Shown here piece by piece: positions 931 to 6,500 of a DNA stretch of 6,552 nt. This DNA comes from Candidatus Iainarchaeum sp. GTDB lineage: Archaea; Iainarchaeota; Iainarchaeia; Iainarchaeales; CSSED10-239. Location of the stretch: the NCBI GenBank assembly GCA_028700115.1, contig JAQVTI010000023.1, forward strand, positions 1 to 6,552, given 5' to 3'. The notes under the pieces were generated by a model. That model had not been told where the DNA came from. It saw nothing but the letters and a program-made list of their open reading frames with translations, and searched no databases. A program made the translations under genes and the position numbers. The first letter of the stretch is position 1; each line of letters begins with the position of its first letter.

Positions 931-989
931 GATTTTAGATATATTTTTATATTCTTTTAACAATATAAGATTTATAAATAGTGATAATT

Positions 990-2666
990 ATGGTTGATCA
1001 AGAAATTTCTAAATTATTAAAAGAGATTAATAAACTTAAAGATGAAAACCAAAAATTAAAATCAAGAAAAAAATATGGTTTAGTTTGGGAAGAAGAGAAA
1101 GAACCTGAACAAGTAGTTTTAGATTGTCAAAAAAAGATTCCTATCTTAAAAGAAGTAAAAAGTAAAGAGATACTTACTGATAAAGATAAACCAATTAATA
1201 TTTTAATAGAAGGCGATAATTATCACGCTTTACAAGTTTTAAATTATACTCATAAAGGAAAGGTTGATGTCATTTATATTGATCCTCCTTATAATACTGG
1301 TAAAGCTAAAGAGTGGAAATATAATGATAAATTTATAGATGAAAATGATAATTATAAACATTCTAAATGGCTTAACTTTATGAATAAAAGATTGCTTCTT
1401 GCAAAAAATCTTTTAAAAAATGATGGAGTTATTTTTATTTCTATTGATGATAATGAAGTTTCACAATTAAAACTTCTCTGTGATGAAATATTTGGAGAAG
1501 ATAATTTTATTTCTAAATTTGTTTGGGAAAAAAACTTCGCGCCAAAAAATGATAATAAATATATTTCTACATCTCAAGAGTATATTTTACTTTATGCAAA
1601 ACAAAAAATTTTATTTAAAAGAAATTTGTTAGAAAGAACAGAAGAACATAACAAAGGTTATTCTAATCCTGATAATGATCCAAGAGGCAATTGGTCTTCA
1701 GGAACAATGTTAGCAACAACATTTAGTGAAAAATATGTTTTTTCAATAAAAAGACCTAATAGTACAGAAATTTACCCCCCAAAAGGGAGGTGTTGGAGAT
1801 ATTCTAAAGATAAAATTCAAAAATTATTAAATGATAATAGAATTTGGTTTGGTAAAACTGGATCTAATGTTCCAAGAATAAAAAGATTTTTAACAGAGGT
1901 TCAAGCAGGAATTGTGCCTGTTACTTTATTGAAATATAAAGAAGTTGGTAGTGGGCAAGATGGTACTAATGACTTAAAAAACATTTTTGGAGAACAAATT
2001 TTTGATTTTCCGAAACCAATTAAATTAATAAATTATATTTTAAAAATAAGTTCTAAAAAAAATGCAATTATTTTAGATTTTTTTGCAGGTACTGGTACAA
2101 CAGCTCATTCAGTTTTAGATTTAAATGTTGATAAAGGAAATAGAAAATTTATTTTATGTACTAATAATGAAGATAATAATGGGGACGGTAAAAAAGTTTG
2201 TTCAGATATTTGTTATCCAAGAATTGAAAAAGCAATAAAAGGTTATAAAACAATTAAAAATGTAAAAGTAGAAGGTATGGGTGGTAATTTAAAATATTTT
2301 AAAACTAATTTTATAGATGTTGATAGTATTTATAAAGTATCAGATAATAAAAAATTAAATTTAACTTATCAAGCAGGAGAATTAATTGCAATTAAAGAAG
2401 ATGCTTTTGAAGAATTAGAAAAAAATGAATATTACCAAATCTTTAAGAATGATAAAAAAGTTGTAGGTATTTATTTTATAGAATCTCATAAAAAATTAAA
2501 TGAATTATTAAAAAAGATTAATAAATATGATTCAAAGAAAATTATATATTTATTTAGTTGGGGTAAAACAGAATATACTGGAGAAGAGCTAGGTTATTCT
2601 AATATAAAAATAAAAGATATTCCCCAACCAATAATTGATGTTTATAAAGAAATAAACAAATTATAG
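990..2666 (+). CDS. mod: Type III restriction-modification system methyltransferase (Mod), beta-class, probably N6-adenine
   Basis: - Catalytic motif IV DPPY at 1281-1292, in context GKVDVIYIDPPYNTG.
- AdoMet motif I FFAGTGTT at 2079-2102.
- Motif IV precedes motif I, which is the beta-class order typical of the N6_N4 MTase family.
- The N-terminal YGLVWE and NILIEGDNYHALQVL segments are typical of Type III Mod proteins.
- The res gene follows 8 nt downstream.
- The track starts at GTG 981. I prefer ATG 990 (3 codons later), because GTGAT at 981-985 then acts as an SD-like element 4 nt upstream. Confidence 0.9.
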   Translation: MVDQEISKLLKEINKLKDENQKLKSRKKYGLVWEEEKEPEQVVLDCQKKIPILKEVKSKEILTDKDKPINILIEGDNYHALQVLNYTHKGKVDVIYIDPPYNTGKAKEWKYNDKFIDENDNYKHSKWLNFMNKRLLLAKNLLKNDGVIFISIDDNEVSQLKLLCDEIFGEDNFISKFVWEKNFAPKNDNKYISTSQEYILLYAKQKILFKRNLLERTEEHNKGYSNPDNDPRGNWSSGTMLATTFSEKYVFSIKRPNSTEIYPPKGRCWRYSKDKIQKLLNDNRIWFGKTGSNVPRIKRFLTEVQAGIVPVTLLKYKEVGSGQDGTNDLKNIFGEQIFDFPKPIKLINYILKISSKKNAIILDFFAGTGTTAHSVLDLNVDKGNRKFILCTNNEDNNGDGKKVCSDICYPRIEKAIKGYKTIKNVKVEGMGGNLKYFKTNFIDVDSIYKVSDNKKLNLTYQAGELIAIKEDAFEELEKNEYYQIFKNDKKVVGIYFIESHKKLNELLKKINKYDSKKIIYLFSWGKTEYTGEELGYSNIKIKDIPQPIIDVYKEINKL

Positions 2667-2674
2667 GCGATAAT

Positions 2675-5068
2675 ATGAATATTGAATTAAAGACTTTTCA
2701 AAAAAAAGCAATTGCTGAATTAAGAAATCAATTTTTAAAATTGTGGAATACAGATAATAGACAAATAGATTTAATATTTAAATCTCCAACAGGTTCAGGA
2801 AAAACAATAATGATTGCACAATTTTTAAAAGATTTAACAATAGATCCTCAATTTGATGTTGATAAAGCATATTTGTGGATTACTTTTAGTGAAGAATCAT
2901 ATGAACAAAGTAAAAATAAATTAGATAATTATTATGATAATGTAGGAGAATTGGGTTTATTAGATTTAAATGATCTAAATAAAAAAAAAATGACTAAAAA
3001 CGAAGTTTTTTTTATAAATTGGCAAAAAATAAAATCTTCAACAAAAGAAGGAAGAATATTAAGAAGAGATTCTGAAAAATCAGAATGGGATAAAGGAATA
3101 TTTGATGAATTTATTATCAGAACAAAAAAAGAAGGAAGAGAATTAATATTAATAATTGATGAAGCACACAGAGATAAAGATACAACACTTGCTAAAGAAA
3201 TAATTGATATAATTGATCCAAAGATAATATTACATATAACTGCAACTCCTAAAGAAGAACCAACCTATTCAGAAGTAACTAATTTAAAAAAAGGTTTTGT
3301 AGAAGTAGATAGATTAGATGTAATTAAAGAAGGATTAATTAAAGAAAAGATAATTACTCAAACAAAAGAAAACTTAGATGTAGTTTCTAAAAAAGAGATT
3401 GATCAAGACATTTTACTTTTAGAGTTAGCACACAATAAAAGACAAGAATTATTGGAGATATTTTCTCAAAAAAACATTAATATTAATCCTTTAGTTTTGA
3501 TACAATTACCAAATGATGACAAAGCAAGAAAAGAGACACAAGATAAATCTAAATTAGAATTAGTTAAAGAGTTTTTAAGAGAAAAAAAAATAAAAGATGA
3601 AAATATTGCTATTTGGTTATCAGAAAAAAAAGAAAATTTAGAATATATTGAGAAAAATAATTCTGATATTTCTTATTTAATATTTAAACAAGCTGCAGCA
3701 ACAGGATGGGATTGTCCAAGAGCACAAATATTAGTAATGTTTAGAGAAATAAAAAATCCTGTTTTTCATACTCAAACAGTAGGAAGAATATTAAGAATGC
3801 CTGAAGCAAAACATTATGATATTTTAGATTTAAATTATGGTTATTTATATACTAATTATGAAAGAAATCAAATTAATTTGCCTGATAATAAACAAGGAGA
3901 AAATAAACCTTTTGTACATCAATCAAAAATAAAAAAAAATATTGAACCAATTGTATTAAATTCTACATATTTAAGTAGAGTAGATTATAATGATCTAGGG
4001 GCTAGTTATGAATATACATTAGATAAAGTGTTTAATGAATATTTTAATATAGTTGATGGATTTAAAGGAGAAAGTTGGAACAAATTAAAAGAAAAAGGAT
4101 TAGAGCTAAAAAATCCAATTGTAAATAATAAAATGATTGTTGATGCAGAAATAGAGTGTTACGATAATTTTGTAAAAGAAATTAAAGATAAAGGGATTGA
4201 TTATAATAATGAAACTTCTCAAAATGATATTGAAAAAACATATAATTTATTATGTTACAATAAAATTGCAAAACAAGAAGAGGAAAGTAGAAAATTTGCT
4301 CCAGAAAGATCTTGGGCAACATTAAAAAGATCATTAAATGTGTGGTTTCAAAATACTATAGATTCTGATAGAGAAATATATTATAAAATTATTGTTTGTG
4401 ATTTATTAAAAGAAAATAGTGTTCTATATAAAGCCATATCAAAATCTTTTGAAGTTCATAAAGATGTAAGACTAAAAGAAGTTAAAGAAAAAGAAGAAAG
4501 AAAAGAGCAGTTTATTAAATTAGAAGTTCCTTTAAAAAACTTATTTTATACAGATGATTATGAAGAAAAGAGTGTAAAAAAATGTGCAATTAGTCCATTT
4601 TATATAAAAAAATCTTATTCTGGAAAAGATAATGAAGAAAAATTTATAAAATATTTAGAATCTAAAGACACTATCGATTGGTGGTATAAATCAGGAGATT
4701 CTGGAAGAGATAATTTTGCAGTAAAATATTTTAATAAAGATGATAACAAATTTAAATTATTTTATCCAGATTGGATTATTAGACTAAAATCTAACAAAAT
4801 CTTAATATTAGACACAAAGAAAGGTAATACTGCTAAATCAAATGACACTATTTATAAAGCTGAAGCATTACAAGAGTGGATAAAAAAACAAAAACAAGAT
4901 ATTATAGGTGGAATTGTAGTAAATTTATCTGATATTTGGATGTTAAATAATAGACATATTTATAGTTATAAATCAAATAATGTTGATAATTCTGAGAATA
5001 GTTTAAAAGATAGTATAAGTAAATCTGATTTTAAAGATTGGATTGATTTAGATAATGTGTTGATTTAA
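2675..5068 (+). CDS. res: Type III restriction endonuclease subunit (Res): SF2 DEAH-box helicase/translocase plus C-terminal PD-(D/E)xK nuclease
   Basis: - Walker A PTGSGKT at 2786-2806.
- Motif II DEAH at 3158-3169 (LIIDEAHR).
- Motif III TATP at 3239-3250.
- Motif VI QTVGRILR at 3773-3796.
- C-terminal nuclease signature YPDW...x11...LDTKKG: P698-D699 at 4766-4771 and D713-x-K715 at 4811-4819.
- Located directly after mod, the canonical mod-res order. Confidence 0.9.
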   Translation: MNIELKTFQKKAIAELRNQFLKLWNTDNRQIDLIFKSPTGSGKTIMIAQFLKDLTIDPQFDVDKAYLWITFSEESYEQSKNKLDNYYDNVGELGLLDLNDLNKKKMTKNEVFFINWQKIKSSTKEGRILRRDSEKSEWDKGIFDEFIIRTKKEGRELILIIDEAHRDKDTTLAKEIIDIIDPKIILHITATPKEEPTYSEVTNLKKGFVEVDRLDVIKEGLIKEKIITQTKENLDVVSKKEIDQDILLLELAHNKRQELLEIFSQKNININPLVLIQLPNDDKARKETQDKSKLELVKEFLREKKIKDENIAIWLSEKKENLEYIEKNNSDISYLIFKQAAATGWDCPRAQILVMFREIKNPVFHTQTVGRILRMPEAKHYDILDLNYGYLYTNYERNQINLPDNKQGENKPFVHQSKIKKNIEPIVLNSTYLSRVDYNDLGASYEYTLDKVFNEYFNIVDGFKGESWNKLKEKGLELKNPIVNNKMIVDAEIECYDNFVKEIKDKGIDYNNETSQNDIEKTYNLLCYNKIAKQEEESRKFAPERSWATLKRSLNVWFQNTIDSDREIYYKIIVCDLLKENSVLYKAISKSFEVHKDVRLKEVKEKEERKEQFIKLEVPLKNLFYTDDYEEKSVKKCAISPFYIKKSYSGKDNEEKFIKYLESKDTIDWWYKSGDSGRDNFAVKYFNKDDNKFKLFYPDWIIRLKSNKILILDTKKGNTAKSNDTIYKAEALQEWIKKQKQDIIGGIVVNLSDIWMLNNRHIYSYKSNNVDNSENSLKDSISKSDFKDWIDLDNVLI

Positions 5069-5104
5069 AGTTATTAATAGTTATAAATATTTTATTGATT
5101 ATAA

Positions 5105-5938
5105 ATGATTAAAATATATCCTGATTTAACAAATACAATTTATCAAAAATATATTTATGATTTATATGATGGTGAATTTCCTGAAGAAATAATTACTTCT
5201 AAATATTTATTAACTGAAATTGATCTTCCTTTTGCCAAAAAATTATCTCCAGGAGATTATTATAGATCTAAATCAAAATTACAAGAATGGTATAATATTA
5301 GAAGCGAAATAATTGAAATGTATAGAAAATTAATTGAATATTATAATTGTCATTCGATTAATTTAGCTGGTTTTTTTTCTTTATCCGGAATACTATTAGA
5401 ATATTTATTTAAGTATGAAATATCAAGAAGAAATCAAAGTAATACTAATTTAATTAAAGATATATTTTATACAAATAAATGTAATCTATCAAATATAGTT
5501 ATAAATAAACCTAAAAGTATTATTAATTTATTTAATTATTTAAAAGAGTTGGAATCATTAAGAAGTGAAATAGAGTCTTTTGTAGAATTAAGAAATTCAT
5601 TTGTACATTGTAATATTGAGAAAAGAAAATCATCAATGGCCAATTTTAAGAAAGTAATTGGCCTTAACAGTGGTTATTTTATAATTAAAAATAAAAAAAC
5701 TTTAGTTAAACACGTTGTAGGATACATTGGAAGGAATAAAAAACCAAAAGAAATTGATGAATCTGACCCTGAAAATTATTTTTATGGTAGAGATGAAGCT
5801 TATTTAAGTATTTCTTTAATATTTGAAATATTCAAAAAATTATATGGAGATATAAATTATTTAAGATGCGATAATTTATTTATGCAATTAAATAAAGGAA
5901 AATTACCTGTTAAATTAAAATATTTATACGATAGATAA
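5105..5938 (+). CDS. Hypothetical protein with an HEPN-like RNxxxH motif (candidate RNase, toxin or abortive-infection effector)
   Basis: A 277-codon ORF in AT-rich DNA is a confident coding call. The motif R-N-S-F-V-H at 5591-5608 (aa 163-168, context LRSEIESFVELRNSFVHCN) fits the HEPN Rx4-6H signature, including the common polar N after R. It follows long predicted-helical segments (GILLEYLFKYEISRR, NLFNYLKELESLRSEIESF). The function call rests on motif and context only. Confidence 0.7.
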   Translation: MIKIYPDLTNTIYQKYIYDLYDGEFPEEIITSKYLLTEIDLPFAKKLSPGDYYRSKSKLQEWYNIRSEIIEMYRKLIEYYNCHSINLAGFFSLSGILLEYLFKYEISRRNQSNTNLIKDIFYTNKCNLSNIVINKPKSIINLFNYLKELESLRSEIESFVELRNSFVHCNIEKRKSSMANFKKVIGLNSGYFIIKNKKTLVKHVVGYIGRNKKPKEIDESDPENYFYGRDEAYLSISLIFEIFKKLYGDINYLRCDNLFMQLNKGKLPVKLKYLYDR

Positions 5939-5971
5939 CATTTAAATTAACTTTATATTATTAAATACTAT

Positions 5972-6106
5972 ATGAAGTGCTCAAAGTGTTCTAAAAAAGC
6001 AGAATATTATATTACTAAAGATAATAAAAAGATATATTTATGTAAAGAACACTCTAGGGAAAAATTAATTAAAGAGGGTTATAGTTATATTCCTAAAATT
6101 AATTAA
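5972..6106 (+). CDS. Small (44 aa) putative zinc-ribbon protein, CxxC-x17-CxxH; absent from the ORF track
   Basis: Hand translation: ATG 5972, MKCSKCSKKAEYYITKDNKKIYLCKEHSREKLIKEGYSYIPKIN, TAA 6104-6106. C3/C6 and C24/H27 form a paired-knuckle metal-binding pattern in an otherwise Cys/His-poor region. It fills the 165-nt gap between flanking genes. No clear SD is present, and the short length limits confidence. Confidence 0.4.
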   Translation: MKCSKCSKKAEYYITKDNKKIYLCKEHSREKLIKEGYSYIPKIN

Positions 6107-6381
6107 AATCTATTTGTTTCTTCAGTGAACTTATAAATTAATTCTAATACTATCCAAATTCCTAAAATTATCCAAAAAATATTCCATCCTAATAAAATTA
6201 TAATTAAAATAAATATTCCTGGTATTAGTATTATTCTTCTTGTTATTAAAAATAATATAAATTTGATAAGAAATAGCCATTCTGAAAAGTTATCTGTAAA
6301 ATCATCTGTTTTATCAGAAAGCGTATATACTAATTCAACTAATTTAAATGATTCAATAAACTTTATTATTTTTTCCCACAT
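6103..6381 (-). CDS. Small hypothetical membrane protein (92 aa; soluble N-terminus plus 2-3 hydrophobic helices)
   Basis: Track ORF. About 34 acidic/polar N-terminal residues are followed by WLFLIKFILFLITRRIILIPGIFILIIILLGWNIFWIILGIWIVLELIY (about 6130-6279). This is strongly hydrophobic with an RR loop. 92 stop-free codons are unlikely by chance at this composition. Confidence 0.6.
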   Translation of the reverse strand: MWEKIIKFIESFKLVELVYTLSDKTDDFTDNFSEWLFLIKFILFLITRRIILIPGIFILIIILLGWNIFWIILGIWIVLELIYKFTEETNRF

Positions 6382-6427: not shown

Positions 6428-6500
6428 AGCCTCTAATGGGATTTGAACCCACGACCTACAGTTTACAAGACTGTTGCTCTAGCCACTGAGCTATAGAGGC
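6428..6500 (-). tRNA. tRNA-Thr (anticodon UGU), no encoded CCA
   Basis: Reverse complement of 6429-6500 reads GCCTCTA TA GCTC AGTGGCTA GAGC A ACAGT CTTGTAA ACTGT AGGTC GTGGG TTCAAAT CCCAT TAGAGGC.
- Perfect 7-bp acceptor stem, 4-bp D stem and 5-bp anticodon stem.
- 5-bp T stem with one G-U pair; T-loop TTCAAAT.
- U8 and U33 present; anticodon TGT.
- 72 nt plus discriminator T (6428), followed by TATTTT rather than CCA. Confidence 0.93.

Follow-up and report, generated by a model that had tools for sequence, protein, structure and literature searches.

Gene order at the locus and the cassette behind res

The stretch of DNA analysed here (hereafter the window; 6,552 nt, ca. 22 % GC) is a complete contig from Candidatus Iainarchaeum sp. 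and contains a Type III restriction-modification (R-M) operon followed by a gene for a 277-aa protein with an RNxxxH motif, which is the subject of this work. The operon is formed by mod (981..2666, + strand), coding for a methyltransferase of 561 aa (Pfam N6_N4_Mtase, 6.5e-41; PADLOC MTase_III, 9.7e-109), and res (2675..5068, + strand), coding for a restriction subunit of 797 aa (Pfam ResIII, 1.2e-19, and Helicase_C; PADLOC REase_III, 5.8e-16) whose C-terminus shows, by reading of the sequence, a PD...(D/E)xK-like motif (YPDW...LDTKKG). The adjacency, on one strand, of genes for an N6/N4 methyltransferase and for a helicase with an endonuclease identifies the system as Type III. As the first-pass annotation of this DNA had described, and the list of open reading frames (ORFs) confirms, the 277-aa ORF (5105..5938, + strand) starts 36 nt past the TAA stop of res and on the same strand. 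Its start agrees with the N-termini of its homologs, and an identical sequence is on record as hypothetical protein PHN22_04565. A scan for promoters and terminators returned nothing above shuffled controls, the models being bacterial and not meaningful for an archaeon.

Blast comparisons revealed a version of the same site without the gene. Loci L025-L027 contain the R-M system of the window at 85 % nucleotide identity over 4.1 kb and lack the 277-aa gene: by blastn, positions 944-5068 of the window align with 743-4870 of L025 (85 %), and positions 5922-6100 with 4857-5036 (78 %), the deduced Mod and Res products being 88 and 85 % identical, respectively. A small gene for a zinc-ribbon-like protein, situated downstream of the 277-aa ORF in the window, is found 37 nt past res in L025-L027, and the intergenic sequence TAACATTTAAATTAACTTTAT occurs after res in L025 and after the 277-aa ORF in the window. 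The R-M system of L025 without the gene therefore defines a clean presence/absence cassette of ca. 867 nt in the window (5069..5935, + strand, from blastn and reading of the junctions), made up of a 36-nt leader and the ORF. We searched the cassette for conserved flanks, repeats or recombination sites and found none. An ORF of the same length in L025 (277 aa, 5388-6221) was discarded as a displaced homolog, because it showed no similarity by BLASTP and corresponds to a 281-aa ORF of locus L013.

The same arrangement recurs at other archaeal loci, and this genomic context is the strongest new evidence on the gene. Wherever upstream sequence is visible, the homolog lies directly after an R-M system and on its strand, in seven settings out of seven (six with Type III systems and one with Type II), and the six Type III settings fall in three mutually divergent R-M lineages. 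Besides the mod-res pair of the window, the gene follows a different Type III mod-res in L005-L008, and, in L009-L012 and L018, a third Type III system with an additional gene for 115 aa, within an integrase-bearing island. A close relative of this third system, plus a 120-aa gene, precedes it in L004, L017, L023 and L014, and a res of the same type, plus a 261-aa gene, in L013 and L016, where the res frame runs open to the contig end; a 47-aa "res remnant" in L013 was rejected for this reason. In L001-L003, finally, the upstream genes are those for an NgoPII-like Type II restriction endonuclease and a C5 methyltransferase. The family is carried on a single-gene cassette of ca. 870 nt that, in DPANN-type archaea of high AT content, inserts directly 3′ of R-M operons. 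The first-pass annotation had labelled the gene an orphan, possibly coupled to Type III R-M, and had proposed looking at the neighbourhoods of its homologs; adjacency to R-M was found for every one of them, whereas specificity for Type III does not stand, because this mobile cassette also occurs behind a Type II system. The arrangement is that sought by guilt by embedding (Payne et al., 2024), with the same orientation, a position beside a known system and several independent contexts, except that the gene lies at the 3′ end of the operons and not between genes of the system. Type III R-M is not among the systems surveyed by those authors.

Family conservation and the RNxxxH motif

The family comprises nine sequences, approximately six of them distinct, that belong to four lineages, share 38–57 % identity and come without exception from AT-rich metagenome contigs of DPANN-type archaea. 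A search of 5.8 billion clusters through a word index identified one relative (P0002, 56 % identity), and an exhaustive HMMER search of 1.84 billion representatives retrieved only three; a profile search added P0005, and scans of GTDB genomes and JGI metagenomes contributed a few more loci, in part from a metagenome-assembled genome (MAG) of Woesearchaeota. No relatives were found in IMG/VR viral contigs or, by tblastn, in phage and plasmid records. The ratio dN/dS between family members ranged from 0.14 to 0.35, which indicates purifying selection and a real gene.

The motif R163-N-S-F-V-H168 (5591..5608, + strand), a putative catalytic Rx4H with an asparagine after the arginine, was located exactly where the first-pass annotation had placed it, in a protein that contains, also as it had counted, only three histidines (residues 83, 168 and 203), along with 12 arginines. 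In 100,000 composition-preserving shuffles of the protein, RNxxxH arose by chance in 1.1 % of cases, in line with the earlier rough estimate of ca. 1–2 %, and the looser Rx4-6H in 33 %, so that the motif in a single sequence is only suggestive. However, R163, N164 and H168 are invariant in the nine sequences of the family, and His83 and His203 are not conserved; it is this conservation, which the first-pass annotation had asked to be examined, that takes RNxxxH beyond chance. Other invariant positions are N170, R174, the pair Y80-N81 and the block E99-Y-L-x-K103-Y-E105-x-x-R108-R109.

In a set of 97 distinct ORFs (100 aa or longer) from 14 related loci, RNxxxH was found in the six distinct family members that these loci contain and in only two other ORFs, and both of these occupy the same genomic slot as the family gene. 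One of them, of 197 aa (L030:1638-2231), contains RNIIAH, shows weak matches to HEPN_MAE_28990 and Swt1, and is flanked by a Type III res and the zinc-ribbon gene. The other, of 261 aa (L013:545-1330), contains RNTMVH and aligned by hhalign with the helix-3 region of the family with P = 0.007; in that locus, the slot from res to the zinc-ribbon gene contains this ORF, the family gene and a Cas4-like gene. The 197- and 261-aa ORFs are unrelated, and these occupants suggest that several HEPN-type families are swapped at the slot.

Comparison with HEPN ribonucleases

The HEPN domain is defined as a four-helix bundle with an Rx4-6H motif at the end of helix 3, the arginine being followed by N, D or H (PMC3710099). 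Helix 2 has a conserved acidic residue, usually as Ex3[KR], and an insert between helices 2 and 3 is typical (PMC3710099). We modeled the 277-aa protein with AlphaFold2 (AF2) from an alignment of five sequences, the deepest that could be built. Overall, the mean predicted local distance difference test (pLDDT) was 64.8 and the predicted template modelling score 0.73, with residues 90–200 mostly at pLDDT values of 75–95. The model places helix 1 at residues 66–80, ending at the invariant Y80-N81, and helix 2 at residues 87–109 (both in 5300..5431; these and all segments that follow are on the + strand). After an insert (residues 110–146, 5432..5542), predicted helix 3 (147–168, 5543..5608; pLDDT of 92–95 for residues 141–160) terminates in RNSFVH and, following a break at residues 169–170 that includes the invariant N170 (codon 5612-5614), helix 4 spans residues 171–185 (5615..5659) and contains the invariant R174. 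The predicted order of helices fits the published HEPN definition, with R163-N164...H168 at the end of helix 3. Additionally, helix 2 contains a second hallmark, absent from the first-pass annotation, in the form of two invariant Ex3[KR] motifs, E99-Y-L-F-K103 (5399..5413) and E105x3R109 (5417-5431).

The remainder of the protein is of a different kind. The N-terminal region (residues 1–65, 5105..5299, + strand) includes conserved residues (L8, T9, Q14, K15, Y16, G23, P26, E28, I29, P42, P49 and W62) and has no Pfam match, confident predicted structure or known relative, with pLDDT values mostly below 50 for residues 19–63. Downstream of helix 4, the model predicts a beta-hairpin (190–201, 5672..5707) with an invariant G190-Y-F-x-I194, a variable linker (203–227, 5711..5785; pLDDT ca. 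41–45) with indels between homologs, and a conserved helix (229–247, 5789..5845; EAYLxIxLIFEIxKKLY). The insert after the motif flagged earlier (GYFIIKNKKTLVKHVVGYIGRNKKPKE) corresponds to this hairpin followed by the length-variable linker of low confidence.

Profile searches gave matches of low score. Matches to Pfam DUF3644 were obtained for P0001 (E = 0.0046, 17.0 bits) and P0002 (E = 4.8e-4, 20.2 bits; gathering score 27.6 bits), and a match to HEPN_Apea (PF18739) for P0004 only (E = 0.004, 18 bits, residues 78–180; gathering score 24.4 bits). The three matches cover approximately residues 75–180, and HEPN families were the only Pfam families matched in the core of the protein. All DUF3644 and HEPN_Apea matches were lost when RN..H was replaced by AA..A, indicating that the motif aligns with the catalytic columns of the profiles, and with ExxxK changed to alanine the score for DUF3644 fell from 20.2 bits to 14.0. 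Ten decoys that kept the motif, with 125 flanking residues shuffled or reversed, gave no HEPN match. The matches thus require both the motif and its context, because they are lost with the alanine changes as well as in the decoys. For a direct comparison of families, we located EC042_2821 in Escherichia coli 042 (L020:13188-14501; DUF3644, 160 bits), collected 52 relatives and built a DUF3644 alignment of 26 sequences for hhalign. Residues 77–183 of the family aligned with it, with YN, ExxxK and RxxxxH all in register and the IEYYN at the end of helix 1 paired with LELYN of DUF3644.

On the basis of these sequence features and of the genomic context, we consider it somewhat more probable than the contrary that the 277-aa protein represents a new HEPN family and is a single-gene ribonuclease (RNase) effector attached to R-M systems, a role that the first-pass annotation had put forward for the Type III operon. 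The protein would be made in a latent form, with residues 66–185 as the HEPN helical core. R163, N164 and H168, together with E99 and K103, would make up the active site of a metal-independent endoribonuclease, and dimerisation would probably be needed to complete it, as it is for other members of the HEPN group. An infection not stopped by the R-M system would switch the RNase on, and the cutting of cellular or viral RNA, for which tRNA anticodon loops and mRNA are precedents, would stop the infected cell from growing, so that defence would have a second layer, of the abortive kind. The N-terminal 65 residues and the C-terminal hairpin plus helix would be the likely sensing or gating parts.

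Several results weigh against this proposal. No profile was matched at its curated threshold (17–20 bits versus 24–28), only three of the seven members scanned had a HEPN match in Pfam, and neither the P0003/P0005 clade nor the family consensus gave any Pfam match at all. DUF3877 and Mqo, which are unrelated, match the same sequences at E values of 0.002–0.1, so the range in which the HEPN matches lie is noisy. The hhalign comparison of the two families returned P = 0.021–0.026 and a probability of ca. 2 %, and its score was reached by 2 of 150 column shuffles and by 14 of 150 shuffles of twelve-column blocks (9 %); with the single EC042_2821 sequence as target, the HEPN region was not aligned. 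Foldseek identified generic helical bundles and no HEPN structure, and searches for named relatives in PADLOC, NCBIfam, PHROGs and, with a single profile and with the family profile, PDB sequences gave nothing useful. The invariance of the motif rests on few independent lineages (Neff of ca. 2), and no antitoxin or regulator that would restrain a toxic RNase is evident beside the gene. The sub-threshold scores in a noisy range, the block-shuffled controls, the Foldseek outcome and the fact that about half of the protein (residues 1–65 and 186–277) resembles nothing known would suit a new kind of helical protein, accessory to the R-M systems with which it travels, such as a restriction modulator, an anti-anti-restriction factor or a DNA-binding protein, in which the conserved R, N, H, E and K serve otherwise. 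We nevertheless regard this as rather unlikely: YN at the end of helix 1, Ex3K in helix 2 and RNx3H at the end of helix 3 are co-linear, invariant and correctly spaced, the Pfam families matched in the core are those of HEPN, and other occupants of the slot also have RNxxxH. Moreover, bona fide DUF3644 likewise lacks a sequence-level match in PDB, so that weak signals are normal for HEPN. The HEPN fold or profile that the first-pass annotation had made a point of refutation is therefore weakly borne out, by Pfam matches with E values of 5e-4 to 5e-3 in three of seven members, the consensus having no match, Foldseek no HEPN structure and hhalign a P of ca. 0.02. We conclude that the core of the protein is likely to be a HEPN domain and that it probably founds a very small, previously undescribed HEPN family. 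Membership in DUF3644 or HEPN_Apea was rejected, as the gathering thresholds were not reached and the other members had no match; together with the lack of a PADLOC match, this upholds the earlier view that the protein fits no named HEPN family.

Within a HEPN framework, other roles appear less plausible. The gene is present or absent behind otherwise identical R-M systems, occurs behind unrelated R-M types and, in L009, lies in an integrase-bearing island, and HEPN toxins are common in toxin-antitoxin modules (PMC3710099), all of which would be expected of a selfish toxin that stabilises R-M islands by killing or arresting the cells that lose them. Still, this is improbable, given that the phage, plasmid and viral contigs searched do not contain the gene, that the cassette has no recombination sites or conserved flanks, and that there is no conserved adjacent antitoxin: as regards a Type II toxin-antitoxin pair, no gene is consistently coupled with the 277-aa gene across the loci, a candidate of 115–121 aa being limited to one clade and the zinc-ribbon gene occurring independently. 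Some HEPN domains, such as those of MtlR and the nucleotidyltransferase-associated HEPN proteins, are substrate-binding or regulatory (PMC3710099) and, the gene being co-oriented with the R-M genes after a short gap, a non-catalytic protein that binds RNA or nucleotides and tunes the neighbouring R-M system in the manner of a controller can be envisaged. To this we give an equally low likelihood, since non-catalytic HEPN domains typically lose Rx4-6H (PMC3710099), whereas the family has R, N, H and Ex3K as invariant positions; the gene accompanies both Type II and Type III systems, and the existence of the same, conserved R-M system without it in L025 indicates that it is unnecessary for R-M regulation. 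The least credible alternative, to which we attach hardly any weight, is a two-gene module in which the 44-aa zinc-ribbon protein acts as antitoxin or sensor, echoing HEC-08, a fusion of a DUF3644 HEPN domain with zinc-finger-like domains. In the window, as in the lineages of L005 and L009, the zinc-ribbon gene does follow the family gene, and in L004, L013, L017 and L023 it comes after the family gene plus the Cas4-like gene. It is found, however, without the 277-aa gene directly after R-M genes (L021, L025-L027), behind other cargo genes (L024, L030) and, in L029, next to housekeeping genes that have no R-M system immediately upstream, and is absent downstream of the family gene in the Type II locus L001. 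Its higher conservation (67–86 % identity, as against 38–57 % for the 277-aa protein) is as expected of a resident flanking gene.

A more specific form of the RNase effector proposal, which we regard as doubtful, is a guard-type HEPN effector, the first of DPANN archaea, in which the N-terminal 65 residues or the C-terminal hairpin and helix would monitor the state of the R-M system, for instance by binding Res or Mod or, in the manner of ApeA, by responding to the products of DNA breakdown. Inhibition or overload of restriction would be needed for the RNase to fire, and the slot from res to the zinc-ribbon gene would be a dedicated site at which different HEPN families are exchanged behind R-M systems.

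Among known systems, PrrC of EcoprrI is a latent HEPN-type RNase of a Type I R-M operon that serves as a back-up layer. The 277-aa protein resembles it by functional analogy, as the product of a putative RNase gene within or beside an R-M operon, but PrrC has an ABC-ATPase domain and lies inside Type Ic operons, whereas the 277-aa protein has no NTPase domain and its gene occupies the 3′ end of operons that are of Type III or Type II. The best sub-threshold profile match, from helix 1 to helix 4 and with the YN, ExxxK and RxxxxH motifs in register, is to DUF3644 (PF12358), which corresponds to the EC042_2821 family in the 2013 HEPN survey; genes of this family and of the ApeA family are found in R-M operons. 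HEC-08, of the DUF3644 type, is a single-gene defence system that requires the histidine of the motif, and the DUF3644-type Ishtar protein also acts as a single gene. The 277-aa protein differs in lacking winged helix-turn-helix, restriction endonuclease or zinc-finger domains and in its unique 65-residue N-terminal region and hairpin-plus-helix C-terminus; DUF3644 is bacterial, with the motif RDQAVH, and the family described here archaeal (DPANN), with RNxxxH. The similarity to ApeA, which is likewise a single gene noted in R-M operons, is limited to the sub-threshold, motif-dependent match of P0004 to HEPN_Apea. ApeA is an abortive-infection effector that cuts tRNA anticodon loops and forms large ring oligomers activated by deoxydinucleotides; it possesses a beta-rich N-terminal domain of ca. 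300 aa (PMC3710099), and nothing comparable was detectable in the 277-aa protein. HepT, of the HEPN-MNT systems (HepT/MntA, e.g., SO_3166), is a small HEPN RNase with Rx4H that is often clustered with R-M genes (PMC3710099). The 277-aa protein is twice its size, has no adjacent gene for an MNT nucleotidyltransferase or other antitoxin, and matched no solved HepT structure by sequence or Foldseek.

That HEPN RNases accompany R-M systems and provide a second, abortive layer has been established since PrrC and the 2013 HEPN survey, and single-gene HEPN effectors have recently been validated with HEC-08, ApeA and Ishtar. What is new here is an extremely rare family (ca. six distinct sequences), absent from Pfam, PADLOC and the phage and plasmid collections, in DPANN-type archaea, a group in which little is known of immunity other than CRISPR and R-M. 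The same Type III R-M system with and without the cassette, and the cassette behind both Type III and Type II systems, constitute a natural experiment, which makes a comparison of R-M alone with R-M plus the gene straightforward, and the defined slot between res and the zinc-ribbon gene holds different RNxxxH proteins depending on the genome. If the RNase activity and its trigger prove true, the small size and the lack of partner genes would make the protein a compact model of HEPN latency.

Neighbouring genes

The zinc-ribbon-like ORF of the window (5972..6106, + strand; 44 aa, CxxC...CxxH in the translation, MKCSKCSKK...CKEH) matched DUF6757 with E = 1.3e-5 and 25.7 bits (gathering score 27). 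Its products, of 44–46 aa, number ca. 30 and form four clusters at 90 %; the gene was found by tblastn in L004-L006 and L008-L012 and by ORF listing in L013 and L016-L018. Since some loci have the zinc-ribbon gene in the absence of the 277-aa gene, the idea of a dedicated partner or antitoxin was rejected; the zinc-ribbon gene is probably the resident, conserved right flank of a hot spot, a slot at which exchange of R-M systems and accessory genes takes place.

Two further genes are restricted to part of the loci. In the P0003/P0005 clade only, a gene for 115–121 aa lies between res and the family gene (L009:9633-9980, L004:995-1360, L017:1215-1577, L014:5051-5413, L023:5481-5846); its products are 60–68 % identical between loci, match DUF2513 weakly, and could be a clade-specific partner or regulator. 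In one clade, a gene for 415–416 aa separates the family gene from the zinc-ribbon gene (L004:2233-3483, L013:2204-3451, L017:2450-3700, L023:6719-7969). By eye, its product is Cas4/RecB-like, with an N-terminal cysteine, a C-terminal CxxC...C cluster and a PD-(D/E)xK-like stretch, and it had no Pfam match at E of 1 or better.

Other genes with features of defence systems are found at some of these loci. After the Type II-linked family member, a 398-aa ORF (L001:3160-4356) contains RSNQYH, an Rx4H motif, near its C-terminus and has a faint N-terminal match to AbiTii, and may code for another HEPN-type protein. Downstream of the empty-site R-M system of L025, genes for an AAA_15/AAA_21 ATPase and then for a protein with an RloB domain (L025:6293-8256) represent a further defence-type pair and, therefore, the region is a defence island. 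On a contig of a second 'Ca. ainarchaeum' MAG (L021:349-5381), another Type III R-M system, with an EcoP15I-like C-terminal domain in Mod and RE_endonuc in Res, is directly followed by a gene for a 46-aa copy of the zinc-ribbon protein and, after that, by one for a Peptidase_M78 (ImmA/IrrE-like) protein of 399 aa.

At the left end of the window, upstream of mod, an ORF of 165 aa without assigned function (337-834, + strand) shows a weak similarity (24 % identity, E = 1.6e-4) to a 232-aa ORF at the equivalent position in L025 and, judging from this alignment, may be a conserved companion of the R-M system of the window. The sequence RYIVIH, present close to the N-terminus of this ORF, does not fit the position of a HEPN motif. 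To the right of the zinc-ribbon ORF, a hydrophobic ORF of 92 aa (6103-6381, - strand) is convergent with it, their 3′ ends overlapping by 4 nt; elsewhere among the loci there is a membrane ORF of 64–66 or 107–110 aa that, unlike that of the window, is on the same strand. The right contig end contains a tRNA-Thr gene (TGT; 6428..6500, - strand; ARAGORN, and Rfam tRNA with 75.7 bits), a possible island boundary or integration site.

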